A stretch of DNA of 64,000 nt from Opitutia bacterium (GTDB lineage: Bacteria > Verrucomicrobiota > Verrucomicrobiia > Opitutales > T3Sed10-336): the NCBI GenBank assembly GCA_050506795.1, contig JBJHCF010000009.1:65801-129800 (forward strand), read 5' to 3'. Shown in pieces: positions 4,528-56,799 of this stretch. Positions within the stretch are counted from its first letter, which is position 1, and each line of letters begins with the position of its first letter. Below the pieces are notes generated by a model, which saw only the letters and a list, made by a program, of their open reading frames with translations, searched no databases and was not told the origin of the DNA. The position numbers and the translations under genes were made by a program.

Positions 4528-4735
4528 GATTCGGCAAAAACGGATGTCCCCACAACAAACAACCCAATTCCGTAAAAGATCAAACCAATACCAGGACCTT
4601 TTCATCTGAAGCCGGCCATCCGCCTCAAAACCCAGTTAAAATCACCGGCATTTGAGATCCAAAATAGACGGATGATCCCAGTCGCCACGGATTTCAGTGG
4701 GCAACTGAGTCGATTTATCGCTAGTATCCCACTCC

Positions 4736-41900: not shown

Positions 41901-44900
41901 CACGAATTCCTCGGAATACGGGCGTCTGACGGTGTCGGGCGAGGCGACGTTGGAAGGGGTCCTGGAAGTGACGTTTACCGACGCGTTCGCTCCGCAAATT
42001 GGCGATCTCTTTGAGATCATCGCCGCGGGATCGGTCGAGGGAACCTTCGCCTCCGTGGAAGCGCCGGAGGAAATCGGGGACGGCTTTATCGAAGTCATCT
42101 ACCGCGAAGACGGGGTCGCCATTCTCATTTCCGGAGCGCCTCCTCTGCAGGCCCGCGATCCCTTCCCCGCCGATGGCCAGGAAAACGTGGCCCGGCATCC
42201 GATTCTCAGTTGGTCCGACGGAGGGCTCACCAGCAGCTTCAACGTTTATTTTGGAACCGAGCCCGAACCCGGTGTGGCGCAATTCCAGGGAACCATCACC
42301 GGCACCGGTTTTGATCCCGGACAGCTCGATTACGCGACCACTTACTACTGGCGTGTCGATTCCGAGAATGAAGTCGACCTGACGTCCGGCGAGGTGTGGT
42401 CGTTCACCACCCGCCCTGAGCCGGCGAGCATCGCCGGAATTGTTTGGCGGGATGACGACGGAGACGGTGTGTTCGGTCCCGAGGAAGCTCCCATCGAGGA
42501 CCGCTGGGTGTATTTGGATCTCAATAACAACGGCGTGCGCAATTCCGGCGAACCGCAGATACGTACGGAAGCCGATGGCTCTTACCTCTTTGACGATCTG
42601 GCACCGGGAGAATACGTGGTTCGTAAGATTCTTCCCAACGCCTGGGAGCAGACCTTCCCCGAAGGCGGGACCGCCCAGGTGGTGACGGTGGAGCCCGGAG
42701 AGGATCTGACCGGGGTGGACTTCGGAAGCCGGCGGGCGGCGCCGGTGGTGGTGGCGGCCTCCACCAGCCCGTCCTCGCCGATTCCGGCGACCAATGAACT
42801 GGTGGTTACCATTCGCTTCGACCGAACCATGGATCCCGCGATTGATCCGGAGGTGACCTTTGTGCCGCAGGATGGCGCCGAGGCTCCCGTGGTCCCGGGA
42901 GGCGGTCAGTGGTCGCGGACCTCGCGCACCAACGACACTTACCGGACGCCGCCGATCGACGTGGCGGCGGGGATGGACGGCGAGCACGCCATCCGGGTCG
43001 CCGAAGCGACCGACCCGTTTGGACTGGTGATGGAATCCGCCGAGGTTTTGCAGGTTGCGATCAATGCGACCCCGCCCCAAACCGTCACGCCGACGGTCAC
43101 GAATATCACCGAGTCCACCATCACCATCGGTTGGTCCGAATACGAAGCACCCGCGGACCTGAACCTTTTCCGCATCTATCGCGAGGACGCGCCCTTCGCT
43201 TCCCTGGACGGCTTGGCTGCCCTCGACGGTACCGGCGCCGCCGCCCGCGAATACACCTTCACCGGGCTGGACCTCGACCGGGAATATCATGTGGCGGTCG
43301 GCGCGGTGGATACCGCGTTGAACATGGACCGCGAAGTGACGTCGATTCCGGTCATCATCGAGAGCGATCTCCCGCCGCCGCTGACACCGGAACTGTCCTC
43401 ACCCCGGCTGACGGCGGCGTTGCTCGAGTGGAGCGATTACGATACCTCCGAGCTTTTCGGCTTCGCCGGATACTGGATTTTTGTGGAGGAAACGGACTTT
43501 TCCTCGGTGGATGGTTTGGAGCCCTACGCGGTGACGGGGCCGGAGGCGGAAAGCTACGAAGTCGGCGGTCTGGACCGGACACTTGATTACTACCTGGCGG
43601 TGGTTCCCTTCAACCGGCTCGATGAATACGTCAGCGAAGTGACCACCGTGCACTGGCGCGATCCCCTGGCGGAAACCCTGACCGTCGATCTGGCGATCGG
43701 GGGAGAAGGGGAAACCTTCGAGGTATTCAATCCCCTGGTGGTCGAGGGGGGAGCGACGCTCACCCTGCGCGCCGGAACCACCCTGACCTTTGCCGCGAAC
43801 GCCGGAATCGAGATTGTGGAAGGCCGGCTGTTTTCCGAAGGAACGCCGGAACACCCGGTGCACCTGACCGCCGCGGTCGAGGCGGGACGCGGCGCCTGGC
43901 AAGGGGTGATTCTCGGACCCGGCGCCGACGGGTCGGAAATCTCCCACACCTGGATTCGGCACGGCGGCGGACTGCTCATCGATGGCAGCCGCGATCACCT
44001 GCTGCAAGGCCTGCGGGTGGTCTGGAACCTGCCGGCGGGCATCGAGTTGATGAACGGCGCGGAAGCGAGCGTGCATGATTCGTTTGTGGCGCTCAACGAG
44101 GACGACGGACTTTGGGTGGGGGGCGACAGCACTCTGACCCTTCGCGGTTCGGTGATTAAGAACAACGCTCGCGAAGCGACCGTGGAAAACGGGTCTTCGC
44201 TGGATGCCCGTGAAAACTGGTGGGGCAGCGAGGATCTGGCGGACGTTTCCCTGGAAATCGAAGGCGATGCCGACCTGGCCGATCCCCTGACCCGGGAGCC
44301 CATCCTCGGCGCCGCGGTTTCACCGTTGCATGGGCCGGTTACCGGGGACCGGGAAATCGTGCTGCGCCTGATGTCCCCCAACGCGACCAGCTTCCGGGCC
44401 AGCGAGGACTCCACCTTCGCCGGGGTGTTCTTCCAGGACATCGAAGCCGATGAAGCCGGGGCCGACCTTTACCGGAGCACTCCGGTGGAGGCGCCGTTCA
44501 CCCTCTCGGATGGGGCCGGGGTGAAGACCCTCTTTATCGAACTGCGCGCTGCCGACGGATCGATCGCCGACCCGATCACCCTGGAAATTGAATACGTCAC
44601 CGACGGCCCGGTCATCACCGCATTCAGTTTGCAGGAGGGTGACGAGTTCAGCCGTCCGGCGGAGGTCTCCGGTTCGGCCGAATCGGAGCAGGGGATCGCC
44701 GCTCTGGAGTTTTTTGTGGAGGGCGAACTCGTGCTGGCGTCCGCGGACGGCGAACTGCAGGGAGTGTGGGATTTTCGTGGTCGCGAGGCTTCAATCGTCC
44801 GGGTGCGTCTCCAGGCGACGGATACTCTCGGCCTGATCGCCACCCGCGAGCACAATGTGCGCCTGTCGCCTGAACCCCCGCCTCCGCCAACAATCGTTTC

Positions 44901-47900
44901 GCCGCTCGACGGATCGTTGTTCAGCGATCCGCAGGTGACGGTCTCCGGCACGGCCGAGCCGGGAGTAGATGTGCAGGTTGTGCGCAACGGCATTGTTCTG
45001 GGAACGGTGACCGCGGGCGGAGACGGAACCTTCACCCTGGAAAACGCCCAGCTTTCGGAGGGCAGCAACACCCTGGTGGCCCGGGCTACCGATGCGGTGG
45101 GTTCGACTTCCTCTCCCGCGGTTAACGTCAACCTCGACACGGTGCCTCCGGCGCCCCTGATCGTGGAGTCGGCCGAGTACCTCACCAATCGGGGAATCCA
45201 GGTGTTCTGGCGCTTCCCGACCAGCGGAAAACGGGCGACCAGTTTTCGCGTCCTTTGGAGCGAGGACCCCATTGAAACCGCCGGTGACGCCGACGGTCAG
45301 AGCGATCCGATCACGGTGACGGATTATCTTATCGAAGGGATCCCTGATGGGGATTATTACATCGCGGTCGTGGGATTCGATGGGGCCGGCAACTCCAGCG
45401 GGCTGTCCAATGTCCTGACCGCGATTTACGACGACACTCCACCGGCCTTCACCATTGCCTACGATCAGGCGATGCCCATGGGGCCCGGGGATTTGGGCAT
45501 TACGCTCACCGCAAGCGAAGCCTTGCGGTCAACCCCGACCCTGACCGTGCGGCCGGCGAATTTTTCCACGCCGATTTCAGTTTCCCTGACCGAAGCCGGA
45601 GGCAATACCTACACGGGGACCTACCTGGTCTCTCCCCTGTCCGGATCGACCGGCACGGCGGAGGTGCGGGTGTCGGGACGCGACCTGGCCGGGAATTCGT
45701 TCGCGGGTGCTCCCTCCGGGCCCGACCTGGTCTTTGACCTTTCCCGTCCGGTCGCGAGCATCGCGGTGGACCAAGCCGAACCGGTTCAGGTTTTCGACGG
45801 CGACACCGATGTGGGAATCACACTTACCCTGAACAAGTCGGTTCCGGGACCGCCTTCGCTCACGTTTTCGCCGCCGGACGGTCCCGGTGTCGCGGTTTCG
45901 CTTTCCGGAGAGGGCAGCGTTTGGGAGGGTATCCTGACTCTGACCGAATCCATGGGCACCGGCCTGGGGACCTTTGTCTTCTCGGTCACGGACGCGCTCG
46001 GCAATGAAGGCACGGCGATCGAGTCGGGTGGTGAGCTGGAAATCTACAACACCGAGGCCGCGCCTCCTCCTCCGGTTCCGACCGGTTTGGAGGCGGTGAC
46101 CCGTACGGCCGGCGAGATCGGCATCCAATGGAATCCTTCCGCCGGCGCCGAAGTGTATCACCTGTACCGCGCCGAAGGCGGCACCGGACCTCATCCTACC
46201 GAGCGTGTTGCCTCCGGACTGACGGAGACCGTCTTTTTCGATACACCGCCGGAGGATGGCTTCTACCGCTATGCGGTTTCCTCCGAACGCCTGGGATCCG
46301 AAAGTGATCTGTCCGGGATGGTTTCCGCCGAGTCCGACCGCACCCCGCCGGAGGTCCCGGAAAACGTCACCGCCGAGCTCGACCTCGCCGGAACGGTCCG
46401 CATCTCCTGGGACGCGCCGTCTTCCGGCGAAACGCCCGCGGGCTACCGCGTGTATCGGAACGATTCACACGTTGCCTCGCGCGCCAACCCCGGAATCGTC
46501 ACCGACGCTCCGCCCCGCGGGGTGAACGCGTACCGGGTGGCATCGGTCGATTCGGTAGGCAACGAAAACCGCAGCGATCCGGTCACAGTGGAACTCTTCG
46601 TGGGCGCGGTGTCTTCGCTGGTGGCGACCGTCACCGAAGGCGGCGCTCCCGAGCTTTCCTGGATCGGGGAGGACGAGGAAGCGGTCGGGTACAACGTCTA
46701 CGCCGGCGGGGAGCTGCTCAACCAGGGCGGTCCTTTGGTGCAACCCGCGTTCAATGCCGCGGAACCGGTCGACGCCGACGCCGTCGAATTCCGCGTACGG
46801 GCGGTCGATAGTGAAGGACGCGAAAGTGCCGCCCGGACCGTCACGGTATACCCGGTGACCGCGGACCTCGGGTTCAATCTTGATTCGGCCGGCAACGACC
46901 GGGAACTCATGGCCCGGTATTTTGATGTTTATGAAATATCGGCGACTCACAGTGCCGACAGCGACTGGGAATTCCAGGAAGTGGCCGTCACCCGCTTTGA
47001 AGGAGGCAATGCGACGGAGATTTCCCTTCCGCTCGACGCGGAGGCCGGACTGGTCGAAGCGGGCGCGGCGGGCTCCTGGGATATCGTCTTTCCCGGGGTG
47101 ATCGACGCCATGGAGGATTACACCTTCATGCTGGAATTGCGTCAGGTGGAGGAGGACGATTCCGTGGCTTTATATCGGGGACATTTCAACGGACCGGTGG
47201 CGGTTGAGCCCTCGATCATGATTGCCGTGACCACGTCGGAACCGCCATTGGCCGGAGGCGAAAACGATTTCCGCGCCCGCCTCTACAACCGGGGTTATGC
47301 CGACATGGATGTGCTGCTGGTGCGCTCCGGCGGGTCGGAGCCGGGGGACCTGATCCTCGAGGTGCTGGACGCCAACGGTTCGGTGGTGCATGCCGTGCCG
47401 TTCGACCGGCCGGTTTCGGGAATGAGTTTCACCGGCGACGGGCGCGGGTACCTGCGCATTCCGCCGGGCGAGTCGAAAAGCGTGCTCTTTGAGAACGTCC
47501 TGGTCCCGGAAAGCCTGGCCGAAGAGGGCAGCGCCCGCATCCGGGTCCGCGCGCCCGCCATTTACCAGGCCATGGGCACCTCCCGCCAGCGCACTTCCGG
47601 ACCCCTTCGCGGGTCCATGACCACGAACCTGGTGGAATCCCCTTATTTCGGAGTTCTCCAAACCGATGCGCCCGGGTATGCCGACGACCAGCCCATCACG
47701 TTGACGGGTCAGGCCATCGATCGCGAGACCGGTCTGCCGGTGCCGAACGCCGACCTGTCGATCGGTTTTTATGTGCGCGGGTTCCATTGGTTCCGTCAGG
47801 TGACCACCGATGAGAACGGCAACTTCACTTACGAATACACTCCCCCGCCCGGATTGAGCGGTTCCATTGGTTTTTGGGCGTCCCATCCCGACGTGGTGGA

Positions 47901-50064
47901 TGTGCTCGACCAGGCCGAGGTGTCCGTCCTGCGTGTCCTCGCGAGCCCGGCACGGGGTGAGATTCGTATGTCCAAAAACGATACGCTCGACTTCAATCTC
48001 CAGTTGATCAATCCCGGCGACCTGCCGATGGCCCTGGACGGGGTCTCAGCCCGTTTCTATATTGTCGATGACGAGGATGAGGAAATCGAGATCGACACGG
48101 TAACCCTGCACGAGGCGCGACCGCTGCCTTCGAACCTGGGTCCGGATTCCCGGAACCGCGTTCACCTGCGTCTGCAATCGGAGCTGGATGCGCCGGACCT
48201 GGTGATGGCCGAGATCACCTTCGAAACGGAGGAAGGCGCCAGTGCGTTGTTCCGGGCGGAGATCACGCTCTTGCAGGCGATTCCGATTCTCCGGGTGGCG
48301 GAGCCGAGTCGCGGTTACGTGGACCGTTCCCTGGACCGCGGAGACCAGCGCAGTCGCCGGGTGACCATTACCAACGCCGGCCTGCGCGCGCTTGAAGGGG
48401 TGGAAATCGTGCCCCCGCAGAACGTCGAATGGATGAACTTGAGTCTCCCGGCGGACGAAGATGGCATCATTCGCGTTCCCGACCTGGCGGTCGGAGACCA
48501 ACTTGAATTCCAGGTGGTGTACGCGCCGCCCAACGACACCGAGCTCGGCTTTTACGACGATTTCCTGGTCATCCGCGGCGATAACGCGGTGGGGGATTTC
48601 GAAATGAGTCTCTTCGCCGAGATCACATCGAACCTGACCGGTGAGGCCCAGTTTGTCGTGAGCAATATCATCGATCAGCGGGTGCCCAACGCGTCCATTC
48701 GGCTGCGCAACACCGTCAACCGCATTGAGCGCGGACCCTACTACACCAATGCGGAAGGAGAATTCCTGGCCGAAGAGCTGCAGGAGGGCCGCTGGTCCTG
48801 GCAGGTGACGGCGCCCGGGCATTCGGCCGCCACCGGCACGGTCGACGTCGAGCCGGATCAGGTGATACTGGTCGAGCCGGAACTCAACCGGAGTCTCGTA
48901 ACCGTGACCTTCGACGTTGTGCCGGTGCCGTTCACCGACCGCTACGAAATCCGGATCGAACAAACCTTCGAAACCCGAGTGCCCGCGCCGGTGATGCTCT
49001 TCTCGCCGCCGATGTTCGAATTTGAGAACGTCGATTTTGGCTTCGAGACCACCATCATGGCGGAACTTCGCAACGAGGGTCTGATCAGCGTCAATGACGT
49101 TGAAATTGAAGGCGGTCAGTCCGACCTGATGTCCATCACTCCGCTGATTGAATACATCCCGGAACTCCGCCCCGAGCAGGTGGTGGAAATCCCGGTACGG
49201 GTCCGAATCCACGAAGACGCCCGCAATGGCAACGGAGCCGGTCCGCAGGCTTCGCCCCTCGTTTTCAACCCTCACCCCTCCCCCTGTGGGGCGGTGTCGG
49301 GAGAAGACTTTGCCGCCGGTATCGGCGCGATCATGGACCTGGCGGCGGAAGGCGAGTTCGGCAGCGCCTCCAGGGCAAGCCTTAAAAAAGCGCTCGCCGC
49401 CATGTTTATCGGGGCGACCGTTTACGAATCGGTGACCCAGGTGGGCAGCGGGGGACTGGAAACGGTTATCGGTTTTGTCGGCGGCTTTATCGAATGCGCC
49501 GGACATTTCATGAGCGGATCGACTCGTCGCGGCGGCGGAACCCCTTCCCGGGGCGGCGGGACTCCCGGACCTCGCCCGGCCTTCGAAGCCGGAGGCCGCG
49601 GGTGTTTCCTGCCGGATACGCCGGTGACCCTCGCCGACGGCACCACGCGGGCGATCTCGGAACTTGCCGCCGGCGACCGGCTGCGGGCCGGTCCGGATCC
49701 GCGCAGCGTGGGCACGCTGAGCTATCTGTTCCGTTTGGAATCCGACGACGTCCATACGCTCGTTCTCCGCTGCCTCGACGGAACACGCGAGGACCAGGAG
49801 CTGCACGTCACCGGCGAACACCGCCTCTGGCAGGACGGACGGGGCTGGACCCACGTTCGCAACCTTTCGACGGGCGACTGGCTGGCGGCCGAGGGGGGCG
49901 GTCACTGGGAAATCGCTTCCATGGAACGGCTCGAAGGCGAACACACGGTTTACACCTTCCAACTCACCGGCGACCACGCCTTTTACGCCGACGGCGTGCT
50001 GGCTGAAGATGTCTGCGGCGGAGCGTTTTTGGACCTTTCACATGTGGAGGTAGTCTCACAATGA
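32944..50064 (+). CDS. Giant (5,706 aa) secreted multidomain adhesin-like protein with C-terminal Hint domain
   Basis: Signal-like N-terminus; laminin-B-like YYSAPPKFLGDRSAAYG.LRY; two beta-helical blocks; FN3-like TTYYW..VWSFTT; SdrD_B-like VYLDLNNNG.RNSGEP; many Ig/FN3 units; ends CFLPDT...TGEH...GVLAEDVC. Confidence 0.93.
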   Translation: MFPMTVPFLILRRAQVNLLSTVCGAAGLLFGSLQATESLVTDFDDPLIRLDGWKVLTAEGVANDIGNPRWEPAGGNPDGYFAVEDLARGGVIYYSAPPKFLGDRSAAYGLELRYDVSSTTTNSSFDRDDLVLEGENLRLIYRHDPMPEPDGWVSFSLLLEEGSRWRVMDVSEEWEGHGWETEGDTPSESQFIEVLADLRGLYIRGEFWSGSSSLGLDNVEMEVLAGSIQAPMEVVEAYWLGGDGDWTDAANWSTDSYPRNDVPEQGYRYRAIIDAEGDYTVTLDEDLLIEELELDAGGATLEFNSSTLYAPEGIRLLDGRMELNGSLLYATEVTGNPQATLAVTGNSRLLDVTLQSVELFIASGNDVLVAGDLTLDDAVIRLDRTSNFVDTRLRFDDGALQTLAGVGEVIFDGSSSGNLHRQRVEAINEGGHLVVESGITVRTGQQGGQLGNTDNPITNYGTVRAQTDGRFINFYGSNAVNEGSLEAIEGGMLRIDGSFINNAQISGDDGAIELRGDWSNAGTLETVDTLVDFGSEFTLADVGTFSRDGGTVRITGTLHNTGATLMLDESFGTWDLHGGAIIGGTVASDADFRLRATASGRLEEVTLQSVELFLASGNDVLVAGDLTLDDAVIRFDRTSNFVDTRLRFDDGARQTLAGVGEVIFDGTSSGNLHRQRVEAINEGAHLVLAEGITVRTGTQAGQIGNANYPFTNYGRLVAETSDRSLLVAGNDFINEGIIEVRDGGRIQISGLAGDLNTLIMDPSGGRVDLDGDYTLNQDVTVPEGAHLTLSGNWTNTATIILDEGRLDLGDTYSAASLGTITRTRGELRLSGTLENDDTVFDLTAISGDSGEITLDAGTINGGTLTGNDDVLIRVISNSRLENVTLSSLELFIASGNDVLVAGDLTLDDAVIRFGRTSNFVDTRLRFDDGALQTLAGVGEVIFDGTSSGNLHRQRVEAINEGAHLILAEGITVRTGTQAGQIGNASYPFTNYGRLVAETANRTLIAVGSELVNEGSLEAFAGGHLDVRGLSGESNTLLLQDENSRITLAGDYVVSEDVIVYPGTTLSLTGQWHNQATLFLDEGLLNCEGDFNTADLGNVESTGGNVRLIGNLDNTDSLFDIAAYAGNEGTVNLHGGTISGGIISGNGSSVLRVTNNGRLDDGIVLSSLELFIASGNDALVAGDLTLDDAVIRFDRTSNFVDTRLRFDDGALQTLAGVGEVIFDGTSSGNLHRQRVEAINEGAHLVLAEGITVRTGTQAGQVGNTSSPFTNYGRLVAETANRTLIVAGNDFVNEGILEARNGGTIDVRGLTGDSNDILFSGNGGRVILDGDYVINQDVLVPAEARLTLRGDWINQATITAQEGTIDLEGDWSNEGVLAVNDTLIDLDGDITLDALGTLQRDGGTVRLLGTLHNEGGVLALDSTTGSWELHGGSILGGTVSGDGTESLRVTNDGRLDGVTLSSVVLFIASGNDVLVSGDLTLDDATIRFDRTSNFTDTRLRFDDGALQTLAGLGEVIFDGSSSGNLHRQRVEAINEGAHLVLAAGITVRTGTQAGQIGNADYPVTNHGRLLAETANRTLILVGNDLVNQGILEAREGGQLDVRGLTGDAATVLLEGESSRIIVDGIYTLNESVNVLPGARLTLRGEWENPIAVTVDAGTFDLEGDWSNTGAIFASESLVQLDGTFTLAELGDFSRSGGTVRLTGTLDNAETTLDLDEAFGSWNLHGGTILGGEVTGSEDAVLGITDDGRLEQVTLSGIELFIASGNDALVSGDLTLDDAVIRFDRTSNFTDTRLRFDDGALQTLAGAGEVIFDGSSSGNLHRQRVEAINEGAHLVLAAGITVRTGVQAGQIGNASYPLTNHGRLVAETSNRTLIVTGSEFVNQGTLEARGGGTLDAQDLGANAGHLLAGAGGRIITGGNLGDFDSLTFEIGALSGNQFGRIEVSGTATLGESAEVLLTGEAPLNLGDSFTVLEAGSVEGVFAEVTIPEESGVPVLELSYDAQSVIFAVPQRAPLQPIDPVPADGMAEVIINPTLSWNDGGLSESFRLHLGVNPNPMAEPELSTQETTSFNPATLEWGTTYYWQIVALNEYGQTPGPVWSFTTRDEPDLSAGTYWTAAGGNWTDGGNWTSTPHYPDNESPDPGDRYTVIIDAAGVYEIILDSDVTIDRLILDAPGATLRHTGGTLTVLDEVEVLAGTYELAGGTLAEGRLSEGAEGSVQLTANSRFENVTIDSSLEMIVPNSRILYVSGDLTLDNATVRMHSTGSITRIRFDGQEEQHLAGVGEVVFDGDSTSDTRHRVESWGTGTHLVIGEGITIRSGEMGGQIGVSQALTNAGVIVSGTPGRTMEVTTNATFNNNGILVAENGGILEVNGLIGPAGAVTILDAGTEVRLDGDFVVDQDIDVPAGSRLSLAGEMENLASIDVTSAQLDLSGNWVNSGLISAFDSLVDLGGVFRFSDTGIFDRIGGTVRLTGTLNNEGATLHLNETTGSWDLHGGRILGGTIAFADGEALNLTTSSTLENTTLDSSVEFVVSNGNILYVAGNLTLNDAIVRMHSTGSITRIRFEDGEEQHLAGSGEIVFDGDSTSDTRHRVESWSSGTHLIIAEGITIRSGEMGGQIGVSRDVTNHGTIVSETPGRTVEVATNESFTNTGNLRAENGGVLEADGLNGPAGGITVIGQDSRVLLDGNFVVNQNIDVPEGTRLGLLGTVENQAVITVTDARLDLGGSWSNDGVINAVDSLVDLGGTFSLAGLGAFNRTAGTVRLTGTLENEDVTLLLDETTGSWDLHGGRVVGGTIAFADGETLNLTASSTLENATLDSSVEFVVSNGNILYVVGNLTLNDAILRMHSTGSITRIRFEDGEEQHLAGTGEIVFDGDSTSDTRHRVESWSSGTHLVIAEAITIRSGEMGGQVGVSRALTNHGTIVSETPGRTVEINTNETFVNTGLLWASGGGGLTIASLETNTGHLRADASSRIEVGDDAGTGTGFRTQIGGTNSSEYGRLTVSGEATLEGVLEVTFTDAFAPQIGDLFEIIAAGSVEGTFASVEAPEEIGDGFIEVIYREDGVAILISGAPPLQARDPFPADGQENVARHPILSWSDGGLTSSFNVYFGTEPEPGVAQFQGTITGTGFDPGQLDYATTYYWRVDSENEVDLTSGEVWSFTTRPEPASIAGIVWRDDDGDGVFGPEEAPIEDRWVYLDLNNNGVRNSGEPQIRTEADGSYLFDDLAPGEYVVRKILPNAWEQTFPEGGTAQVVTVEPGEDLTGVDFGSRRAAPVVVAASTSPSSPIPATNELVVTIRFDRTMDPAIDPEVTFVPQDGAEAPVVPGGGQWSRTSRTNDTYRTPPIDVAAGMDGEHAIRVAEATDPFGLVMESAEVLQVAINATPPQTVTPTVTNITESTITIGWSEYEAPADLNLFRIYREDAPFASLDGLAALDGTGAAAREYTFTGLDLDREYHVAVGAVDTALNMDREVTSIPVIIESDLPPPLTPELSSPRLTAALLEWSDYDTSELFGFAGYWIFVEETDFSSVDGLEPYAVTGPEAESYEVGGLDRTLDYYLAVVPFNRLDEYVSEVTTVHWRDPLAETLTVDLAIGGEGETFEVFNPLVVEGGATLTLRAGTTLTFAANAGIEIVEGRLFSEGTPEHPVHLTAAVEAGRGAWQGVILGPGADGSEISHTWIRHGGGLLIDGSRDHLLQGLRVVWNLPAGIELMNGAEASVHDSFVALNEDDGLWVGGDSTLTLRGSVIKNNAREATVENGSSLDARENWWGSEDLADVSLEIEGDADLADPLTREPILGAAVSPLHGPVTGDREIVLRLMSPNATSFRASEDSTFAGVFFQDIEADEAGADLYRSTPVEAPFTLSDGAGVKTLFIELRAADGSIADPITLEIEYVTDGPVITAFSLQEGDEFSRPAEVSGSAESEQGIAALEFFVEGELVLASADGELQGVWDFRGREASIVRVRLQATDTLGLIATREHNVRLSPEPPPPPTIVSPLDGSLFSDPQVTVSGTAEPGVDVQVVRNGIVLGTVTAGGDGTFTLENAQLSEGSNTLVARATDAVGSTSSPAVNVNLDTVPPAPLIVESAEYLTNRGIQVFWRFPTSGKRATSFRVLWSEDPIETAGDADGQSDPITVTDYLIEGIPDGDYYIAVVGFDGAGNSSGLSNVLTAIYDDTPPAFTIAYDQAMPMGPGDLGITLTASEALRSTPTLTVRPANFSTPISVSLTEAGGNTYTGTYLVSPLSGSTGTAEVRVSGRDLAGNSFAGAPSGPDLVFDLSRPVASIAVDQAEPVQVFDGDTDVGITLTLNKSVPGPPSLTFSPPDGPGVAVSLSGEGSVWEGILTLTESMGTGLGTFVFSVTDALGNEGTAIESGGELEIYNTEAAPPPPVPTGLEAVTRTAGEIGIQWNPSAGAEVYHLYRAEGGTGPHPTERVASGLTETVFFDTPPEDGFYRYAVSSERLGSESDLSGMVSAESDRTPPEVPENVTAELDLAGTVRISWDAPSSGETPAGYRVYRNDSHVASRANPGIVTDAPPRGVNAYRVASVDSVGNENRSDPVTVELFVGAVSSLVATVTEGGAPELSWIGEDEEAVGYNVYAGGELLNQGGPLVQPAFNAAEPVDADAVEFRVRAVDSEGRESAARTVTVYPVTADLGFNLDSAGNDRELMARYFDVYEISATHSADSDWEFQEVAVTRFEGGNATEISLPLDAEAGLVEAGAAGSWDIVFPGVIDAMEDYTFMLELRQVEEDDSVALYRGHFNGPVAVEPSIMIAVTTSEPPLAGGENDFRARLYNRGYADMDVLLVRSGGSEPGDLILEVLDANGSVVHAVPFDRPVSGMSFTGDGRGYLRIPPGESKSVLFENVLVPESLAEEGSARIRVRAPAIYQAMGTSRQRTSGPLRGSMTTNLVESPYFGVLQTDAPGYADDQPITLTGQAIDRETGLPVPNADLSIGFYVRGFHWFRQVTTDENGNFTYEYTPPPGLSGSIGFWASHPDVVDVLDQAEVSVLRVLASPARGEIRMSKNDTLDFNLQLINPGDLPMALDGVSARFYIVDDEDEEIEIDTVTLHEARPLPSNLGPDSRNRVHLRLQSELDAPDLVMAEITFETEEGASALFRAEITLLQAIPILRVAEPSRGYVDRSLDRGDQRSRRVTITNAGLRALEGVEIVPPQNVEWMNLSLPADEDGIIRVPDLAVGDQLEFQVVYAPPNDTELGFYDDFLVIRGDNAVGDFEMSLFAEITSNLTGEAQFVVSNIIDQRVPNASIRLRNTVNRIERGPYYTNAEGEFLAEELQEGRWSWQVTAPGHSAATGTVDVEPDQVILVEPELNRSLVTVTFDVVPVPFTDRYEIRIEQTFETRVPAPVMLFSPPMFEFENVDFGFETTIMAELRNEGLISVNDVEIEGGQSDLMSITPLIEYIPELRPEQVVEIPVRVRIHEDARNGNGAGPQASPLVFNPHPSPCGAVSGEDFAAGIGAIMDLAAEGEFGSASRASLKKALAAMFIGATVYESVTQVGSGGLETVIGFVGGFIECAGHFMSGSTRRGGGTPSRGGGTPGPRPAFEAGGRGCFLPDTPVTLADGTTRAISELAAGDRLRAGPDPRSVGTLSYLFRLESDDVHTLVLRCLDGTREDQELHVTGEHRLWQDGRGWTHVRNLSTGDWLAAEGGGHWEIASMERLEGEHTVYTFQLTGDHAFYADGVLAEDVCGGAFLDLSHVEVVSQ
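34021..38600 (+). repeat. Six intragenic type-A repeats
   Basis: Core FIASGND.LV.GDLTLDD...GNLHRQRVEAINEG starts at 34021, 34780, 35614, 36451, 37333, 38215. Confidence 0.95.
39625..41760 (+). repeat. Three intragenic type-B repeats (876-nt period)
   Basis: Core DSS.E...MHSTGSITRIRF...DGDSTSDTRHRVESW starts at 39625, 40501, 41377. Confidence 0.95.
49603..50010 (+). other. Hint (intein-like) autoprocessing domain, 136 aa, atypical C-terminus
   Basis: Block A CFLPDTPVTLADG, block B TGEH, GW..L..GD, block F VYT..H.FYADG, end LAED in place of LVHN. Confidence 0.9.
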
Positions 50065-53000
50065 ACAGCATTTTGGATATTGGATCGCGGATTTTGGATT
50101 TCCGGAAAGCCGTCATTTCCGGGTTGGGACTTTTGTTCCTGATCTCGGGCGTGGCGCAGGCGCAGCAGCAGTTCGACGGCTGGTGTGCACGGGTGAAAAT
50201 CGAGATCGAGCAGGAAATGACCCTGGAGCGGATCGGATTTGAGGCCACGCTTACGGTCACAAACAACGACGGTGAAGATGCGATCACCGATTTCTTCGCC
50301 AATCTGACCTTCGAGGACCCGGATAATCCCGGGCAGGATGCGTCGGACCTCTTTTTCGTGCGCAGCCCGCAGTTGGAGTTTATCAACAGCGTGAACGGCG
50401 ACGGTGTCATTCAACCCACCCGGACCGCGGTGATTCGCTGGTTCATCATCCCCAAGATCAACGCCGGAGGCACCGATCCGCGGGGCAAGGTGTATCGCGT
50501 CGGATGCAATCTCGGCGGCAAGCTGGGCGGAGTCGAAATTCCCCGTGAGAACATGCTGGTGATTCCAGACAACATCACCGTGCGCCCGGAACCCCAGTTG
50601 CAGATCACCTACTTCATGCCGCGGGATGTGCAGGCGAACAACCCTTTCACCGAGCGCGTGGAAAGCCCGGTCCCGTTCACTCTCGGCGTGCTGGTGACCA
50701 ACGTCGGTTACGGCACCGCCCACGACCTGCAAATCGATTCGCAGCAACCGAAGATCGTGGAGAATCTCCAGGGCCTGCCCCTGGTCGCGCAATTGCTGGG
50801 GGCTCGGGTGATGGATTCACCCCTTGACCGGGCCAGCCTGGTAGTGGACCTCGGTGATATCGAGCCGGGCCAGACCCGGAAAGGGGCCTGGGACATGATC
50901 ACTTCGCTCTCCGGAGAGTTCATCGAGTTCAACGCCACCTACACCCACGCGTCCGAACTCGGGGGTGAGGAAACCTCGGTGATCGCTTCGCTGGACGCGC
51001 ATTTCATCTTGCGAGAGGTCCTCAACGATCAGCCCGGGCGGGATAATATCCTGGATTTTCTGGCTGTTACCGACCGCAACAGCGAAATGATTCCGGACGC
51101 CCTTTACGAAAGTGAGGGCAATATCCTCCCGGTAAATCACCAGACCCAGTTTGAAGTGTTGCAGGAACTCGACGAGGAACTGGAGTTTGTCATCGGGCTG
51201 GTTTCGGGATTTGAAGGCTGGGGGTACCTTCGGCTCGACGATCCGGCGCAGGGTAACTACGACATCGCGCGCGTTACCCGTTCCGACGGCCGCGTCGTGC
51301 ACGAACGCAACGCCTGGACCAGTTTCCGCTACCAACCGGTGACCAACCGGCGGCTGGATTACCTGCACATCTTCGACCTCATGGACGACGGGCAGTACTA
51401 CGAGTACACGGTGGAATACGCCCCAGCCGAGGAGGATACCGAACCGCCGGTTACCGAGATCCTGTTTGCCGGCGAACATACCCGGGTCGGCGGCGTGGTG
51501 TACGTGACTCGCGATACCGAAATTTATTTCATCGCCGAGGACGCCAGCCCGGTCAGCATGTTCTACAAGATTAACGACGACGAGTTTCGTCCGGCCATGC
51601 CGTTCTCGCTCGACGCTCCGGGCAGCTACACCATCACCTATTATTCCGAGGACGCTTTTGGCAACGTCGAGGACGAGAAGGTCCAGTTGGTGGTATTGTC
51701 CGAGGCGCCTCCCGGATTCGACGAGTTCGACGACACGGACCTGCTGCTGGTGCAGAGCGGCGACACGCTTTCAGTGCGTCCCTCCGAAGCCGACCTCGGG
51801 TTCTCCGTCGATCCCACGCCGTTCGCGGTGGAGGCCCGGGCCGATATCTTTCAGGGAGTGGTTGCCTGGCCGCGGGTGATCGGGGTTCCGCCGTCGCCGA
51901 CCTCCAGTGACGAGGTATCCCTGACCATTACCGGCGCGCAGGTTGATTTTTACCGTTATCGCCTGAACGGCGGCGACTGGTCGGCGGAGGCGTCCGCCGC
52001 GGAACCCCTCGAGCTGGAAGGCCTTTCCGGCGGGGTGGAACTGGAGATCCTGGCGCGTTCCGCCCACGGCGCCTACCTGCCGGCTGACGAGGCGCTGGTG
52101 TTGAATTGGAGCGTGTCCGGAAGCGGATACGCCTTTGTCCTGGACGGCATGCCGGCGATCCCGGTGACCGAGAGCCGGGCGGAAATCCTGGTCGGTGGCG
52201 ACGGGTTGGAACTCTATAGGTGGCGTCCCGATAATGATTTCTTCCGGGCGGAGGCCGCCACGAATGTGCCGGTCGAGATCGACCCGCTGGTCTCCGGCGA
52301 TCGGATACTCGACTTTATCGGCCGGTGGAACGGGACCTGGCAGGACACCTCATCCCCGAGTCGTTTGTCCTTTACCGTGGATCCCGCCTACGGGTCCGAT
52401 ATGTCAACCCTGACCCTGGTGCGCAGTTTCGATCTCGGCGAACTGGAGACCGATGAAGTCGCGCTGGTCTGGGACGGGACCGACGACGGCGGACGGGCGG
52501 TGGCATCGGGGTGGTACACCGTTCGGGTGACGCTCGACGACAGTCTCGGACGAAGCAGCCACCGGACCCGGTTGGTGCATGTGGGTGATATGGCGGCCGA
52601 TGCTTCGCTCCTGGCCGGCGCGGCCGATGGCGCCTCGAGACCGCACGCCCGCGGCGACTGGGCGGTCTGGCAGGACCGCACCGAGGGCGCCTGGAACATT
52701 CGGGCGCGCGATCTCGGAGATTCCGAGGCGACGACTTTGGCGATCACTTCCGGTTCGAGAGACCAGACCCATCCGGCCACCGATGGACGTTATGTGGTCT
52801 GGCAGGGGCGGCGTTCCGGCGGGGCCTGGGATGTCTGGCTGGAGGACCTCGAAGGACCGGCCGGTCCGGTGCAACTGACCGATTCCAGCTCGCGGCACGC
52901 GACCCAACCCCTGGTGGACGCCCCCTGGGTGGTCTGGAGGGAGCGTTCGGTGACCGATTCGGAAGCTCCCTGGCAGTTGGTGGCGCATCATTTGGACAGC

Positions 53001-54044
53001 GGAGAATCCTTTACCGTATACGCGGGACCGGAGGACCAGGGGGAAGCCGATTTGCGGGCGGGCCGGCTGGTCTGGCGGGACCAGCGCGATGTGGGGCCGG
53101 GTGAAATCTATTTCGCGGACCTGGAAACCGGTGAACGCCTACGGCTGACCGAGTCCATTCACGGGCAATTCCACCCGGCCGTGGCCGGCCATTGGGTGGT
53201 TTGGCAGGACACCCGGCACGGGGTGTTGGATATTTACGGATACGATTTTCTGCAGGGGCGGGAAGTTCGTCTGACGGAGACGCCGGAGAATGAAGCGCTT
53301 CCGCACCTGGAAGGGTACTGGATGGTGACCGAGGAAGACGGCGCCGGGTTTGGGACCGGGAATTTCCGTCTTTTCCACCTGGAGGCCGGACGTTCGGTGC
53401 CGTTGACCCGGTCGGCGCGCGAGAAAGCCCATCCCGGTTTCGCGGCCGGACATTTCGTGTGGGAGGAGACCGGCGACGAAGGCACGGTGATTCGCGCGGC
53501 CCGACTGCCCGCGTTGCAGGCGGTGTTCGCCGACAACAACGCGGTTGTGGTGACGGCGGGTCTGGCGGAACGATTCGATTCGGCCTTCGCCCTGCTGGAG
53601 AACTGGCGCGACAGCGCCGGAGTGCAGGCCGTCGGACGTTATCAGAGCCTGGTTCCCGAAGTGGTGCGGGAAACGGCGGAATGGAACGGCGGGACCGCGG
53701 GCGACGATTTTCCCATCGAGGAAGGGGATTTCCTGTGGATTCGTTTCGACGACAACCGTTTGATCGAGCTGGGTGAACGGGAAACCGGCGCCGTCGATCT
53801 GGCGGCGGGCGTGAACGCGGTGAGCTACTCCGCATTCCCGGCGGGTTTCCGGGTCTCCCGGGCGGTGGAGCAGTTGGGGCCCAACAACGTGGAAGCCATT
53901 CGTATGTTGGATTCCCGGAATGGGCGCTGGGTGGCGGTCACGATAGAGAACGGCTCCCTGACGGGTCCCGATTTTGCGATTCCCGAAGCGGCCCTGTTGT
54001 TGGTGGAAGTCAAAGAAGCCGTATCCGGCTGGAAACCCGAATGA
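50061..54044 (+). CDS. Secreted 1,327-aa multidomain partner protein
   Basis: ATGA overlap with the giant gene and GGAGG RBS; signal peptide; CARVKIEIEQEMTLER; Ig-like DTEPP unit; FlgD-Ig-like WDGTDDGG..VASGWY; beta-propeller repeats Q.HPA..G.WVVWQD.R. Confidence 0.9.
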   Translation: MNSILDIGSRILDFRKAVISGLGLLFLISGVAQAQQQFDGWCARVKIEIEQEMTLERIGFEATLTVTNNDGEDAITDFFANLTFEDPDNPGQDASDLFFVRSPQLEFINSVNGDGVIQPTRTAVIRWFIIPKINAGGTDPRGKVYRVGCNLGGKLGGVEIPRENMLVIPDNITVRPEPQLQITYFMPRDVQANNPFTERVESPVPFTLGVLVTNVGYGTAHDLQIDSQQPKIVENLQGLPLVAQLLGARVMDSPLDRASLVVDLGDIEPGQTRKGAWDMITSLSGEFIEFNATYTHASELGGEETSVIASLDAHFILREVLNDQPGRDNILDFLAVTDRNSEMIPDALYESEGNILPVNHQTQFEVLQELDEELEFVIGLVSGFEGWGYLRLDDPAQGNYDIARVTRSDGRVVHERNAWTSFRYQPVTNRRLDYLHIFDLMDDGQYYEYTVEYAPAEEDTEPPVTEILFAGEHTRVGGVVYVTRDTEIYFIAEDASPVSMFYKINDDEFRPAMPFSLDAPGSYTITYYSEDAFGNVEDEKVQLVVLSEAPPGFDEFDDTDLLLVQSGDTLSVRPSEADLGFSVDPTPFAVEARADIFQGVVAWPRVIGVPPSPTSSDEVSLTITGAQVDFYRYRLNGGDWSAEASAAEPLELEGLSGGVELEILARSAHGAYLPADEALVLNWSVSGSGYAFVLDGMPAIPVTESRAEILVGGDGLELYRWRPDNDFFRAEAATNVPVEIDPLVSGDRILDFIGRWNGTWQDTSSPSRLSFTVDPAYGSDMSTLTLVRSFDLGELETDEVALVWDGTDDGGRAVASGWYTVRVTLDDSLGRSSHRTRLVHVGDMAADASLLAGAADGASRPHARGDWAVWQDRTEGAWNIRARDLGDSEATTLAITSGSRDQTHPATDGRYVVWQGRRSGGAWDVWLEDLEGPAGPVQLTDSSSRHATQPLVDAPWVVWRERSVTDSEAPWQLVAHHLDSGESFTVYAGPEDQGEADLRAGRLVWRDQRDVGPGEIYFADLETGERLRLTESIHGQFHPAVAGHWVVWQDTRHGVLDIYGYDFLQGREVRLTETPENEALPHLEGYWMVTEEDGAGFGTGNFRLFHLEAGRSVPLTRSAREKAHPGFAAGHFVWEETGDEGTVIRAARLPALQAVFADNNAVVVTAGLAERFDSAFALLENWRDSAGVQAVGRYQSLVPEVVRETAEWNGGTAGDDFPIEEGDFLWIRFDDNRLIELGERETGAVDLAAGVNAVSYSAFPAGFRVSRAVEQLGPNNVEAIRMLDSRNGRWVAVTIENGSLTGPDFAIPEAALLLVEVKEAVSGWKPE

Positions 54045-54925
54045 GTATTTCACGAGTCATGAAAACGTTTTTTCAATTCACGGCCATCACTGTGCTGGCG
54101 ACCTCCACATCCCTGTGGGCGGACATCGGACCATCCGATCTGGCGGAACGCCTGGCAAACGGGGAATCGATCGCGCTGATCGACGTGCGTGGTCAAAGCG
54201 CCTTTACCGAGAACCACATTCCCGGCGCCATGAACATGCCGGAACGGATCTTCCAGGCGCGGAGGTTGCCGTCCTCCCGGGCGATCGTCATTTACGACGA
54301 CGGCCTCGGCCGCGCCGACGCCTCGGCCGCGGTGATCGCGGCACGGGAAAGGGGGCGTAACGATGTCTTGCGTTTGCGTGGCGGTTTGGCGGCCTGGGAA
54401 TCGGCCGGCCTGCCCACCACCGGCGAAAAGGGATTCAGGTCGCAATCGGTGCCGATGATGCTTTATGCTGATTTGGTGCGCGGGCAGGGCCGCGGGGTGA
54501 CGTTGCTCGACGTTCGTGCGGAACCCTCGCCCCCGCAGGGAGGGGCGGTTCCCTTGTCCGGCGGCCCGGCGTTGACCGATTTGGGAACGCTACTTCCGCA
54601 GGCCCGGGTGTTGCGGCCGGGCGGTCGTCCGGACCCGCAAGGGGGCGCGGTTCCTTTGTCCGGAGGAGGCGAACTGGCGGCGAATGTTACGGCGATCGAT
54701 CCCGAAGCGGAATTGATCGTGGTCATCGACAGCGGCGACGGCGCCGGCGAGGACGTGGTGCGGCGGATACGCGCATCGGGCAATCGCCGGGTGGTCCTGC
54801 TGGCCGGCGGCGAGCGCATACTGAGCCGGGAAGGACGTCCGGGCCTGGAGCGACGTTCACTGGGCATCCAGGTAATCGATGCGTCACAGGTGGAAAATCG
54901 GGAAGAAGGGGAGAGCGATCAGTGA
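54041..54925 (+). CDS. Secreted tandem rhodanese-like protein lacking the catalytic Cys
   Basis: IDVR...F...HIPGA and LRGGLAAW; second LLDVR domain; active-site positions read YDDG and IDSG; ATGA overlap. Confidence 0.85.
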   Translation: MSISRVMKTFFQFTAITVLATSTSLWADIGPSDLAERLANGESIALIDVRGQSAFTENHIPGAMNMPERIFQARRLPSSRAIVIYDDGLGRADASAAVIAARERGRNDVLRLRGGLAAWESAGLPTTGEKGFRSQSVPMMLYADLVRGQGRGVTLLDVRAEPSPPQGGAVPLSGGPALTDLGTLLPQARVLRPGGRPDPQGGAVPLSGGGELAANVTAIDPEAELIVVIDSGDGAGEDVVRRIRASGNRRVVLLAGGERILSREGRPGLERRSLGIQVIDASQVENREEGESDQ

Positions 54926-56799
54926 AAGGACCATTCTGCATCAGACCGCGTGGAAGGAATTCCGGGTTCGTTCGTTTGCTGGGCCGATGGACGGCGGCCG
55001 GATGCCTGATGGCGTCAGCCGCAAGCGTGCATGCGGATCCCGAAGCGGGGAATGTGACCCGCGACGGCTTCACGGTTTTCTGGGAAGGCGCTTCCGAGGG
55101 GATTCCGGAAGTCCGGGTGTTTGCGGATGAGGCCGGTGTGGACCCGTTGAGCGAAGGGGTGCGCCGGGAGCGGTTTCCGCTGGCGGAACCGGTGGGACCA
55201 TACAGCGACGTGGCCGAGCGCGCCCAACGCCGGGCCCTGCGCACGGCCCAGGCGGAGCGAGGGCTGCTCGCGGTTCGGGTAACCGGATTGGCGTCCGATA
55301 CGGAGTACCATGTTCAGGCCGGAACGCTCGACACATCGGGAGCTTTCACCGCCGCCCACGAGGGACTTGTGCCGGTAAGGACCGCTCCGTCGACCCCGTT
55401 CTCGGTGGACTACCGGCAGGTGATTGTCGACTTTCAGGATGAATCGGCCGCCGGGTCCCTGGCGGTGCTGCGGGCGCCCGGCGCCCTGGGGCCCCTGGTG
55501 GCGGTGGTGGGCGACTCCTCCGGGGGCGCCGCCAGGGCGCGGTTTTCGCTGGCCGGGCTGCTGGATGAAGCGACCGGGCAGCCGTTGAACCCGGATACGG
55601 AATGGTCGTTTTCGGTGACCCACCTGCCGGGCGATGGCTCCGCGCCCCTGATGCCCGGAAGCGCGCCCCACGACGGGTCCTTCCAGGTGGCGCGGGCCAC
55701 GACGCTGCTTTTCGAGATGCCGGTCGACGTCGACATCGCGGAGTTCGTCTTTGCCCCGATTGGCGACCAGATGGCCGGCCAACCTTTCGCCGTGACCCTT
55801 GAGGCGAGGGATTCCGCGGGCGATCTGATGGAAGTGTTTGAGGGGACCGTGACTCTGGAATCAAACGGACGCCTGGAAGCCGGAGCGACCACCGCGAGTT
55901 TTGCCGGCGGGGTGTTGCAGGGGCACGAAGTGATCATCGGCAACACGGGGGATTTTCGTTTGACCGCGCGGCATGACGCCAGCGGGGCGGAAGGGGAAAG
56001 CGAGCTTTTCGCGGTCAAGACCGACTGGGAAAACTGGATGGCGCTTTACGGAGATCCGGAGGCGGGAGATTCATTGCGGGATCAGCGACTGGCGGATCCT
56101 GAGGGAAGCGGACAGCCCGCGTTGATGCGTTATGCGTTCGATTTGCCCTTCGATGCCTACGAGACGGCGCCGGTGTTGCACGACACCGTGGAAGAGGACG
56201 GTGAGCGTTACCTGACGGTGCGTTTCCGTCGTCTGCGGTACGCGCCGGATGTGCGGTACCTGGTAATGGCCAGCGACACTATGAGCGAGTGGGAAGTGAT
56301 CGAAGTGATCGAACCGGGAACTCCGGAGTGGGTTACGGTGAGCGACGAAAATCCTATCGGCGCGGAGGACAGTCGTTTTATGCGGGTGGGGCTGGTTGCC
56401 GGTGCCACGTTTGATTTCTGGCGAACCGGGGAATTCGGTATCGCGGCTTTGAACGATCCGGAGGTGAGCGGCAAGTTCGCCGACCCCGGCAATCACGGCG
56501 TGAACAACCTTGAGCGCTACGCATTGGGCATGGGGGGCCTGGATCCGGACCTGGGACGCGCGCCCGAACGACGGATCGTGTCCGAAGGCGGGGTCGATTA
56601 CCAGGAGCTTCACTTCGAGCGCCTCCCGGCTGGAGAAGACGTGCGGTACCGGGTGGAGGCGACCTCCGATTTTCCCCACTGGGAAACCATCGATGAGTTC
56701 GGGCCCGGACAACCGGTGGCGATGGCCGTGCGCGACACCCAACCGGTTCCGGAAAGCGGATACCGCATTATGCGACTCGTAATTGAAGAGGCTCCCTGA
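54922..56799 (+). CDS. Secreted FN3/Ig protein with two copies of a C-terminal domain
   Basis: GTGA overlap; VTGLASDTEYHV FN3; AGQPFAVTLEARD Ig; twice ADP....L.RYA...L.F.RL...VRY.V.A...W...MR. Confidence 0.8.
   Translation: MKGPFCIRPRGRNSGFVRLLGRWTAAGCLMASAASVHADPEAGNVTRDGFTVFWEGASEGIPEVRVFADEAGVDPLSEGVRRERFPLAEPVGPYSDVAERAQRRALRTAQAERGLLAVRVTGLASDTEYHVQAGTLDTSGAFTAAHEGLVPVRTAPSTPFSVDYRQVIVDFQDESAAGSLAVLRAPGALGPLVAVVGDSSGGAARARFSLAGLLDEATGQPLNPDTEWSFSVTHLPGDGSAPLMPGSAPHDGSFQVARATTLLFEMPVDVDIAEFVFAPIGDQMAGQPFAVTLEARDSAGDLMEVFEGTVTLESNGRLEAGATTASFAGGVLQGHEVIIGNTGDFRLTARHDASGAEGESELFAVKTDWENWMALYGDPEAGDSLRDQRLADPEGSGQPALMRYAFDLPFDAYETAPVLHDTVEEDGERYLTVRFRRLRYAPDVRYLVMASDTMSEWEVIEVIEPGTPEWVTVSDENPIGAEDSRFMRVGLVAGATFDFWRTGEFGIAALNDPEVSGKFADPGNHGVNNLERYALGMGGLDPDLGRAPERRIVSEGGVDYQELHFERLPAGEDVRYRVEATSDFPHWETIDEFGPGQPVAMAVRDTQPVPESGYRIMRLVIEEAP

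Follow-up and report, generated by a model that had tools for sequence, protein, structure and literature searches.

The window analysed here, a stretch of 64,000 nucleotides from an Opitutia bacterium (assembly GCA_050506795.1, contig JBJHCF010000009.1, positions 65,801 to 129,800 of the forward strand), encodes a giant secreted protein (32944..50064, plus strand) whose last domain, judged from its modelled structure and its profile matches, is a genuine Hint-superfamily fold and no chance match. It is moderately likely that this domain forms a thioester at the Gly5553-Cys5554 junction which is then resolved by cleavage without splicing. This is the best supported reading since the residues required for the N-S acyl shift are kept, the terminal Asn and a +1 nucleophile are absent, the block-F His is mostly lost across the family, and the domain closes the protein, no functional part following it.

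The giant gene is open over 5,706 codons from a TTG with Met as codon 4, and the public record of the identical protein, which is 5,703 amino acids (aa) long, starts at this Met three codons after the TTG. The protein is composed of a signal-peptide-like N-terminus, Laminin_B, long repeats, fn3, Big, SdrD_B and CarboxypepD_reg modules and the C-terminal Hint, which together with its tail occupies the last 153 codons (49603-50061) of the 5,706 residues. In letters this end reads GRG/CFLPDTPVTLADG...HVTGEHRLWQDGRGW...HTVYTFQLTGDHAFYADGVLAED-VCGGAFLDLSHVEVVSQ, where the slash marks the N-terminal junction, and is followed by the stop codon (50062-50064). The Hint domain proper spans Cys5554 to Asp5689 (49603..50010, plus strand, as for all its parts). 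It begins at the Gly5553/Cys5554 junction (GRG/CFLPDTPV, Cys5554 codon 49603-49605), continues through the block B motif TGEH (49810-49821), a family-specific W-x-D-x-x-x-W (49828-49848) and the block F motif VYT (49948-49956), and closes with block G, GVLAED, of which E-D-V-C covers 50005-50016. The 17-residue tail VCGGAFLDLSHVEVVSQ after Asp5689 (50011..50061) contains Cys5691 as its +2 residue. With Cys5554 and TGEH, both the nucleophile and the Thr-x-x-His motif of the Hint superfamily are present. Apart from the W-x-D-x-x-x-W, these motifs had been named in an initial annotation made from the letters of the window, and every one of their coordinates proved correct when checked. The genome carries a single copy of the Asp-ending Hint protein.

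On its own the domain remains below the Pfam cut-offs, with PT-HINT reaching an expectation value (E) of 2.6e-5 and 24.9 bits against a cut-off of 27.7, Hint 19.4 against 29.7 bits and Vint 17.2 against 27 bits. Across seven family members, Pfam matches at E<=0.01 are obtained to PT-HINT in 5/7, to Vint in 7/7 and to Hint_2 and Hint in 6/7 each, and a seven-member profile matches in the PDB the Umb toxin 8w20 (E 3e-13), BIL2 of Tetrahymena (6y75/6tmm, 1.5e-11), a bacterial intein-like domain (BIL), and the Clostridium thermocellum BIL 2lwy (1.8e-10). In the profile alignment to BIL2 (FFANGVLAH-N), Glu5688 falls on the penultimate His and Asp5689 on the terminal Asn. An AlphaFold2 model run on a 15-sequence alignment has a predicted local distance difference test (pLDDT) score of 89-97 over the Hint domain (model residues 148-285) and of 60-68 over the tail. 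Foldseek with the Hint model returned 65 PDB matches at E<=0.001, and all 43 matches listed are inteins, BILs, Hedgehog or Vint. The best is BIL2 (6y75, E 2.2e-11), followed by the C. thermocellum BIL (2lwy, 3e-9) and mini-inteins, with the gp41-1 intein at a template modelling (TM) score of 0.86, while Hedgehog (6tyy/1at0) appears with E ~1e-6 at ranks 27 and 36.

The family was traced in 201 genomes of the window's order and in a phylum sample of 401 genomes. Matches occur in 11/201 order genomes, and in seven of these an open frame of 690-6,308 codons terminates in a single Hint, contig ends having truncated the shorter frames; the remaining matches are units of the His-Asn type. A word-based search yielded 11 more giant proteins of 3,218-7,234 aa, including those of Puniceicoccaceae bacterium 5H and Verrucomicrobiota bacterium JB022, and the phylum sample contributed two further members from another family. 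Altogether the Asp-x-Cys Hint architecture occurs in 9 genomes of at least three families, with conserved synteny. Residues were counted over 20 distinct family members and set against 30 His-Asn-type verrucomicrobial Hint units; the nearest 30 units of that type all read VHN-K-G. Cys1 is Cys in 20/20 members, the block-B Thr is Thr in 19 and Ser in one, and the block-B His is His in 20/20. The three residues of W-x-D-x-x-x-W, which follow block B, are likewise present in 20/20 but are different in the His-Asn relatives. Block F is less constrained, with Thr (9), Ser (7), Asn (3) or Gly (1) at its position 4, and the equivalent of the block-F His is His in only 4/20, thus lost in 16/20. At the C-terminal junction the penultimate residue (G:6) is Glu in nine members, Gln in six, His in four and Arg in one, and the last residue (G:7) is Asp in 19 and His in one. 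A variable +1 residue (Val, Leu, Gln or Ser) is followed by Cys at +2 in 20/20 and Gly at +3 in 16/20, and past Cys-Gly the tails, which measure 17-26 residues, are variable. The initial annotation had considered that the orthologues might all carry His-Asn, which would make Glu-Asp a private decay, but no orthologue carries His-Asn, and the Glu-Asp end is not such a decay. In a maximum-likelihood tree the Asp-x-Cys family and the His-Asn units are split on one branch with 100/99 support; as the groups were defined by motif, this means no more than that the motif follows a single lineage.

An exhaustive profile search over 1.84 billion representatives gave 36,788 matches at E<=0.001, of which 169 lie at E<=1e-30, and the family signature ends 57 clusters (50% identity) among the best 150 proteins of this search, counted with a pattern that required the +2 Cys. 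An independent reading of columns of the hidden Markov model finds Cys at +2 in 61/63 short-tailed non-Asn ends. Of the 57 clusters, 20 are at least 3,000 aa in length (the longest 6,958 aa) and 36 are below 1,500 aa; many of the latter start within the conserved upstream module and have the appearance of fragments. At the penultimate position His occurs in 25 clusters, Gln in 16, Glu in nine and Arg in seven, the last residue is Asp in 47, His in six and Glu in four, and Gly is found at +3 in 52. Tails measure 16-40 residues and the Hint is terminal in all clusters; neither the 20 members nor the 57 clusters include a toxin-length extension past Asp-x-Cys. The hallmark of the family is therefore the change of Asn to Asp followed by x-Cys-Gly, and the penultimate Glu of the window is a minority form, so that the replacement of His-Asn by Glu-Asp described in the initial annotation is correct for the window but characterises a subclade only, the penultimate His being retained by far more clusters. 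A carboxylate occupies the last position almost without exception (Asp 47 and Glu 4 of 57), which argues that this position is under selection and not simply lost. The lineages in which the catalytic residues are invariant are mutually only ~33-49% identical. In the close pair L022/L023 the ratio of nonsynonymous to synonymous substitution rates (dN/dS) rises from 0.06 upstream through 0.18 over the Hint to 0.30 over the tail, values which are only rough since dS (0.9-2.0) is saturated.

As described in the relevant part of PMC4031507, Cys1 and the block-B Thr and His drive the N-S acyl shift, the terminal Asn, assisted by two His residues, the penultimate one and that of block F, cuts the C-terminal junction, and a +1 nucleophile is required for the branched intermediate. 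The Hint of the giant protein would be catalytically active, and its thioester would be resolved either by water or by an acceptor, with about equal chances for the two. A 5,553-residue protein, with Gly5553 as its new C-terminus once cleavage occurs, would thereby be detached from, or passed on by, the Hint-plus-tail fragment. The +2 Cys is expected to lie next to Cys1 because the active site of a Hint fold brings its two junctions together. By analogy with Hedgehog (see below) its simplest role in an exported protein may be that of a disulfide redox latch, and a thioester relay is an alternative.

The junction is preceded by a Gly/Pro-rich flexible linker (49513..49602, plus strand, pLDDT <40) which ends in ...AFEAGGRG. 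Between the last immunoglobulin (Ig)-like domain and the linker lies an Ala/Gly-rich helical region (49300..49512, plus strand) in which three helices are predicted with low confidence (pLDDT <55). Two cysteines accompany this region, all on the plus strand: Cys5448 (Cys 'a', 49285..49287), which comes directly after the last Ig-like domain and is invariant in 15/15 aligned family members, and Cys5518 (Cys 'b', codon 49495-49497), which is kept in at least 90% of the 15. A membrane anchor in the helices before the linker was considered and is unsupported; with a maximum 19-residue Kyte-Doolittle mean of 1.23 the region includes no convincing membrane helix, and the same region in relatives reaches a maximum 19-residue hydropathy of 1.4-1.9 with charged residues inside.

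The domain is a member of the Hint superfamily which by its defining features is neither an intein, a PT-HINT, a Hog domain nor a type A BIL. BILs, namely BIL2 of the BUBL1 locus of Tetrahymena thermophila (6Y75/6TMM) and the domain of C. thermocellum (2LWY), are the best structure and profile matches, and like the window domain they have Cys1 and the block-B His and no +1 nucleophile. BIL2 is reported to transfer its N-extein to substrate lysines (PMC8616854, section 2.4). However, BIL2 and the type A BILs end in His-Asn and are located between two functional parts, whereas the window domain comes last and ends in [H/Q/E/R]-Asp-x-Cys-Gly with a 17-residue tail. Of the features that characterise type A BILs, the absence of a +1 nucleophile is shared but the terminal Asn is replaced by Asp in 19/20 members. 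Type B BILs, taken here by definition only, are those without similarity to intein block G (PMC4031507, in the part cited), whereas here block G has plainly preserved its [FY]-A-x-G-[VI]-L backbone, which aligns with that of BIL2. Class 1 inteins end in (His-)Asn, carry Cys, Ser or Thr at +1 and interrupt a host protein whose two parts are rejoined, whereas the domain ends in Glu-Asp, has Val at +1 and Cys at +2, is followed by only 17 variable residues and is terminal in all 57 clusters. A few inteins that end in Asp, Gln or Glu still cyclise according to the same part of PMC4031507, but these are inserted in conserved host proteins and have Cys, Ser or Thr at +1, whereas the window domain has no host C-extein and its family has Val, Leu, Gln or Ser at +1.

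PT-HINT (PF07591) is the best Pfam match and likewise occurs near the C-terminus of large secreted proteins, with a subset that carries a +2 Cys. Among 103 relatives of one verrucomicrobial PT-HINT, a biased sample, the end is His-Asn in 103/103, Cys is found at +2 in 25/103, and most carry ~80-390 further residues. The statement of the initial annotation that pre-toxin Hints read HN-x-C is thus accurate for the His-Asn but applies to the Cys in a minority, and its description of the window domain as toxin-less is upheld by the 17 residues that follow Asp5689. PT-HINT comes with His-Asn, a toxin and an immunity gene, whereas the window domain is without all three and has a three-gene secreted cassette instead. 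The +2 Cys of the family may have been inherited from a His-Asn-x-Cys ancestor.

Hedgehog and its Hog domain (1AT0, 6TYY) resemble the giant protein in having a C-terminal Hint on a secreted protein, Gly/Cys-Phe at the junction, Thr..His and no His-Asn, and cleavage in Hedgehog occurs at the N-terminal junction only, as is predicted here. The Hint of Hedgehog is directly followed by a conserved non-catalytic Cys that pairs with Cys1, and processing requires this disulfide (Cys258-Cys400) first to form and then to undergo reduction (PMC3051819, in the part cited). Hedgehog is nevertheless a distant structural match, and has a sterol/adduct region (PF01079) of ~60-80 residues where the family has tails of 17-26 residues (16-40 over the 57 clusters). 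The Cys of its Ser-Cys-Tyr presumably corresponds to +1, whereas that of the window family is at +2.

The closest published account that was found concerns 'poorly characterized' secreted bacterial proteins that end in a Hint-like domain, with ...G[FI]LVGD as the last strand and a short tail, from Myxococcus, Stigmatella, Photorhabdus, Serratia, Yersinia and Reinekea, with two conserved upstream cysteines (Burglin 2008, PMC2362128, Additional file 16). Compared by eye with this description, the window protein agrees in being secreted, in its terminal Hint-like domain ending in Asp, in the short tail and in the two upstream cysteines. In contrast, the proteins of that group, as far as described in Additional file 16, are ~530-660 residues long, have no +2 Cys (GD-K-S, GD-N-N, GD-L-Q) and carry their upstream cysteines close together and far from the Hint. 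The same C-terminal Hint-like group was reportedly also noted by Dassa and Pietrokovski. No description of a verrucomicrobial Asp-x-Cys Hint family was found in the open-access literature.

The nearest relatives of the His-Asn type are verrucomicrobial Tim44-like proteins (P0003-P0016, L008-L010, L026, L028-L030), which share 34-37% identity and a nearly identical block A (CFLPDTPVTLADGT.RAIS) but have tandem, N-terminal VHN-K-G units and form a separate clade. These proteins are 560-1,017 aa long and consist of a signal peptide, one to three tandem Hint units in which the next Cys1 comes directly after VHN-K-G, a Gly-rich stretch, one hydrophobic helix and two Tim44-like domains (PF04280); we know of no described function for them. 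Tandem His-Asn-type Hint arrays are common in the same sequence neighbourhood, as many top-scoring profile matches (P0136-P0150 and others) contain 3-9 Hint stretches per chain, for example eight in 1,285 aa and nine in 4,119 aa.

Downstream of the giant gene lies a cassette of three genes, d1 to d3, on the plus strand, and all four proteins start with a signal-peptide-like sequence. The first, d1 (50061..54044), encodes a secreted protein of 1,327 aa and directly follows the giant gene in 9/9 loci examined. The giant stop and the d1 start overlap in 7/7 loci, by ATGA, the form seen in the window, in 5/7 and by GTGA in 2/7. The d1 gene is present in 6/6 fetched loci with 48-60% identity and in two further loci of another family with ~60% identity, and within the 201 order genomes a near-full-length d1 is found only in the seven that carry the Hint protein. 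The d1 protein is composed of tandem Ig-like sandwiches, FlgD_ig, beta-propeller repeats and a C-terminal domain without an assignment. Its first 560 residues share 58-70% identity among nine orthologues, which exceeds the conservation of the Hint, and include an invariant Cys42; AlphaFold models this part as tandem Ig-like sandwiches, for which Foldseek gave no enzyme-like match but only generic Ig strings with TM scores of 0.1-0.2. The second gene, d2 (54041..54925), is present in 5/5 loci long enough, is conserved beside the giant gene in 6/6 loci in all, and encodes a secreted protein of 294 aa with two rhodanese-like domains. In all six orthologues, four of which contain no Cys at all, the catalytic Cys of both domains has given way to Asp, Gly, Ser or Thr, and on account of this replacement they are predicted to be inactive homology domains; a transfer of sulfur by d2, giving a thiocarboxylate at Gly5553, was rejected for the same reason. 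The third, d3 (54922..56799), encodes a secreted protein of 625 aa without a recognised family and is also present in 5/5 loci long enough. For d1 and d3, searches of the PDB, Pfam, NCBIfam and the Atlas returned no informative family.

The N-terminal module of d1, ~500 residues in length (window 50061-51740, residues 39-540), also occurs with 31-37% identity inside other giant frames of 2,777-5,125 codons in related genomes (G049:C84, G169:C20, G016:C29, G116:C123, G116:C32, G185:C28 and G049:C104), and in L025 a shorter match to it (41% over 154 aa) closely follows the gene of an RHS-PT-HINT toxin. The cassette is followed in the window by a PEP-CTERM-type protein (56843-57586; E 6.8e-4, just below the cut-off), whose gene is shared only with the closest locus, L013 (49% identity), and by a FG-GAP/ASPIC (UnbV) protein (57735-59774).

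Conservation of the giant protein extends well beyond the Hint. When compared by blastp with 10 giant relatives, a C-terminal module of ~2,400 residues (42796..50061, plus strand, residues ~3285-5706) is collinear, at ~40% identity, with the C-terminal ~2,150-2,470 residues of nine other giant proteins and is common to all the giant relatives, whereas their N-terminal 2,900-4,800 residues give no alignment to the window protein. Upstream, neither the N-terminal 300 aa of the window protein nor the five upstream genes have a match at E<=0.01 in four orthologous loci. The N-terminal half of the window protein is made up of about ten near-identical repeats of ~280 residues (window 33900-41500, residues ~320-2850; ...LFIASGNDVLVAGDLTLDDAVIRFDRTSNFVDTRLRFDDGALQTLAGVGEVIFDG...) of two subtypes with fn3-like modules between them; the Pfam search named none of these repeats, and the public protein record lists PF27355, a family absent from the Pfam version searched. 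The division into a conserved base and a variable head suggests that the C-terminus is the cell-proximal end, where the base, the Hint and d1-d3 would act together, with the variable N-terminal part as a distal functional head.

Several observations weigh against the formation of a thioester followed by cleavage without splicing. The residue that precedes Cys1 is not fixed, being Gly in 13 of the 20 members and another residue in seven; a free Cys1 thiol is perhaps hard to keep in an oxidising envelope; the searches described above reveal in d1-d3 neither an enzyme fold nor a known family from which an acceptor could be guessed; and the near-invariant last carboxylate (51/57) together with the penultimate His (25/57) would also fit an active C-terminal junction. 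The last point is central to an explanation in which both junctions are active. Following the N-S shift, the terminal Asp would cyclise to an anhydride and cut Asp5689/Val5690, the Hint would be excised, and the short tail would either be ligated to Gly5553, in the manner of type A BILs through the freed amine or by capture through the +2 Cys, or be released. Cyclisation is known of inteins that end in Asp, Gln or Glu, type A BILs ligate in the absence of a +1 nucleophile (PMC4031507, in the part cited), and the conservation of the +2 Cys and +3 Gly would find a place in such a scheme. Yet the last residue is a His, which is unable to cyclise, in 6/57 clusters, and 16 of the 20 members lack the block-F His, which aids the C-terminal reaction. 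With the nucleophile at +2 rather than +1, the usual S-N shift could form no native peptide bond, splicing would gain nothing since the tail is variable and has too few residues for an evident function, and there is neither a homing endonuclease nor a conserved host site at the point of insertion. Activity at both junctions is therefore considered unlikely, and the proposal of the initial annotation that the domain cleaves or transfers rather than splices is favoured by the retention of Cys1, Thr and His and by the loss of His-Asn, block-F His and toxin, but tempered by the conserved terminal carboxylate and the potential of Asp to cyclise.

Alternatively the chemistry may have been lost altogether, leaving a folded C-terminal docking or capping module that tethers the giant protein to d1-d3 or the envelope. 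The strict linkage and translational coupling of d1, the invariant W-x-D-x-x-x-W (20/20) as a conceivable binding surface and the absence of the canonical C-terminal catalytic pair would all be in keeping with this, but a docking module would have no reason to keep Cys1 in 20/20, Thr in 19/20 and His in 20/20 members across ~33-49% identity, and dN/dS is well below 1; a purely structural role is thus rather improbable. Least credible of all is a decaying pre-toxin Hint left behind by a polymorphic toxin whose toxin module was deleted. Although PT-HINT is the best Pfam match, shares the +2 Cys in 25/103 relatives and is found in true RHS-PT-HINT toxins of the same phylum (L024, L025, L027, L031), decay would hardly leave a single C-terminal Hint with a 16-40-residue tail and Asp-x-Cys-Gly in 57 clusters and, with conserved synteny, in 9 genomes of at least three families. 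Members have no toxin-length extension, and the giant gene is followed not by an immunity-like gene but by that of a 1,327-aa secreted protein.

If the thioester is formed and cleaved as proposed, the family-specific invariant residues, the conserved base with its variable head, the coupled d1 and the experimental precedent of BIL2, the closest structure, argue for a role beyond self-removal. A tentative and somewhat unlikely extension is that the Hint acts as a single-use sortase, in which the Gly5553 thioester would serve to transfer the whole giant protein onto an acceptor in the envelope and thus to anchor it covalently. Candidate acceptors would be a lipid, a glycan or the translationally coupled d1, in which an invariant Cys lies close to the N-terminus of the mature protein. 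The conserved C-terminal base would then be anchored covalently with the variable N-terminal head pointing outward.

To our knowledge, non-splicing cleavage by Hint domains has been well studied only in Hedgehog (cholesterol transfer) and ciliate BUBL (ubiquitin-like conjugation), and is assigned to polymorphic toxins by inference. The family described here would add a large and strictly conserved bacterial case, with at least 57 clusters at 50% identity and giants of up to ~7,000 residues. Its features are a Hint that is the very last domain with no cargo behind it, the retention of the thioester residues and a rebuilt Asp-x-Cys-Gly junction. Should the thioester be passed to an acceptor, this would amount to a new chemistry of envelope anchoring and would supply a self-ligating tag of natural origin; should it undergo hydrolysis only, it would show a maturation route of giant surface proteins. 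In either case the family offers a direct test of the last-position Asp and the +2 Cys in a Hint active site and a bacterial model for the Hedgehog-type redox control by Cys1 and a second Cys, and thanks to the strict linkage of the partner genes the question lends itself to direct testing. The sortase-like reading, if true, would be the bacterial equivalent of the cholesteroylation of Hedgehog and would represent a new means by which diderm bacteria attach proteins to their surface.

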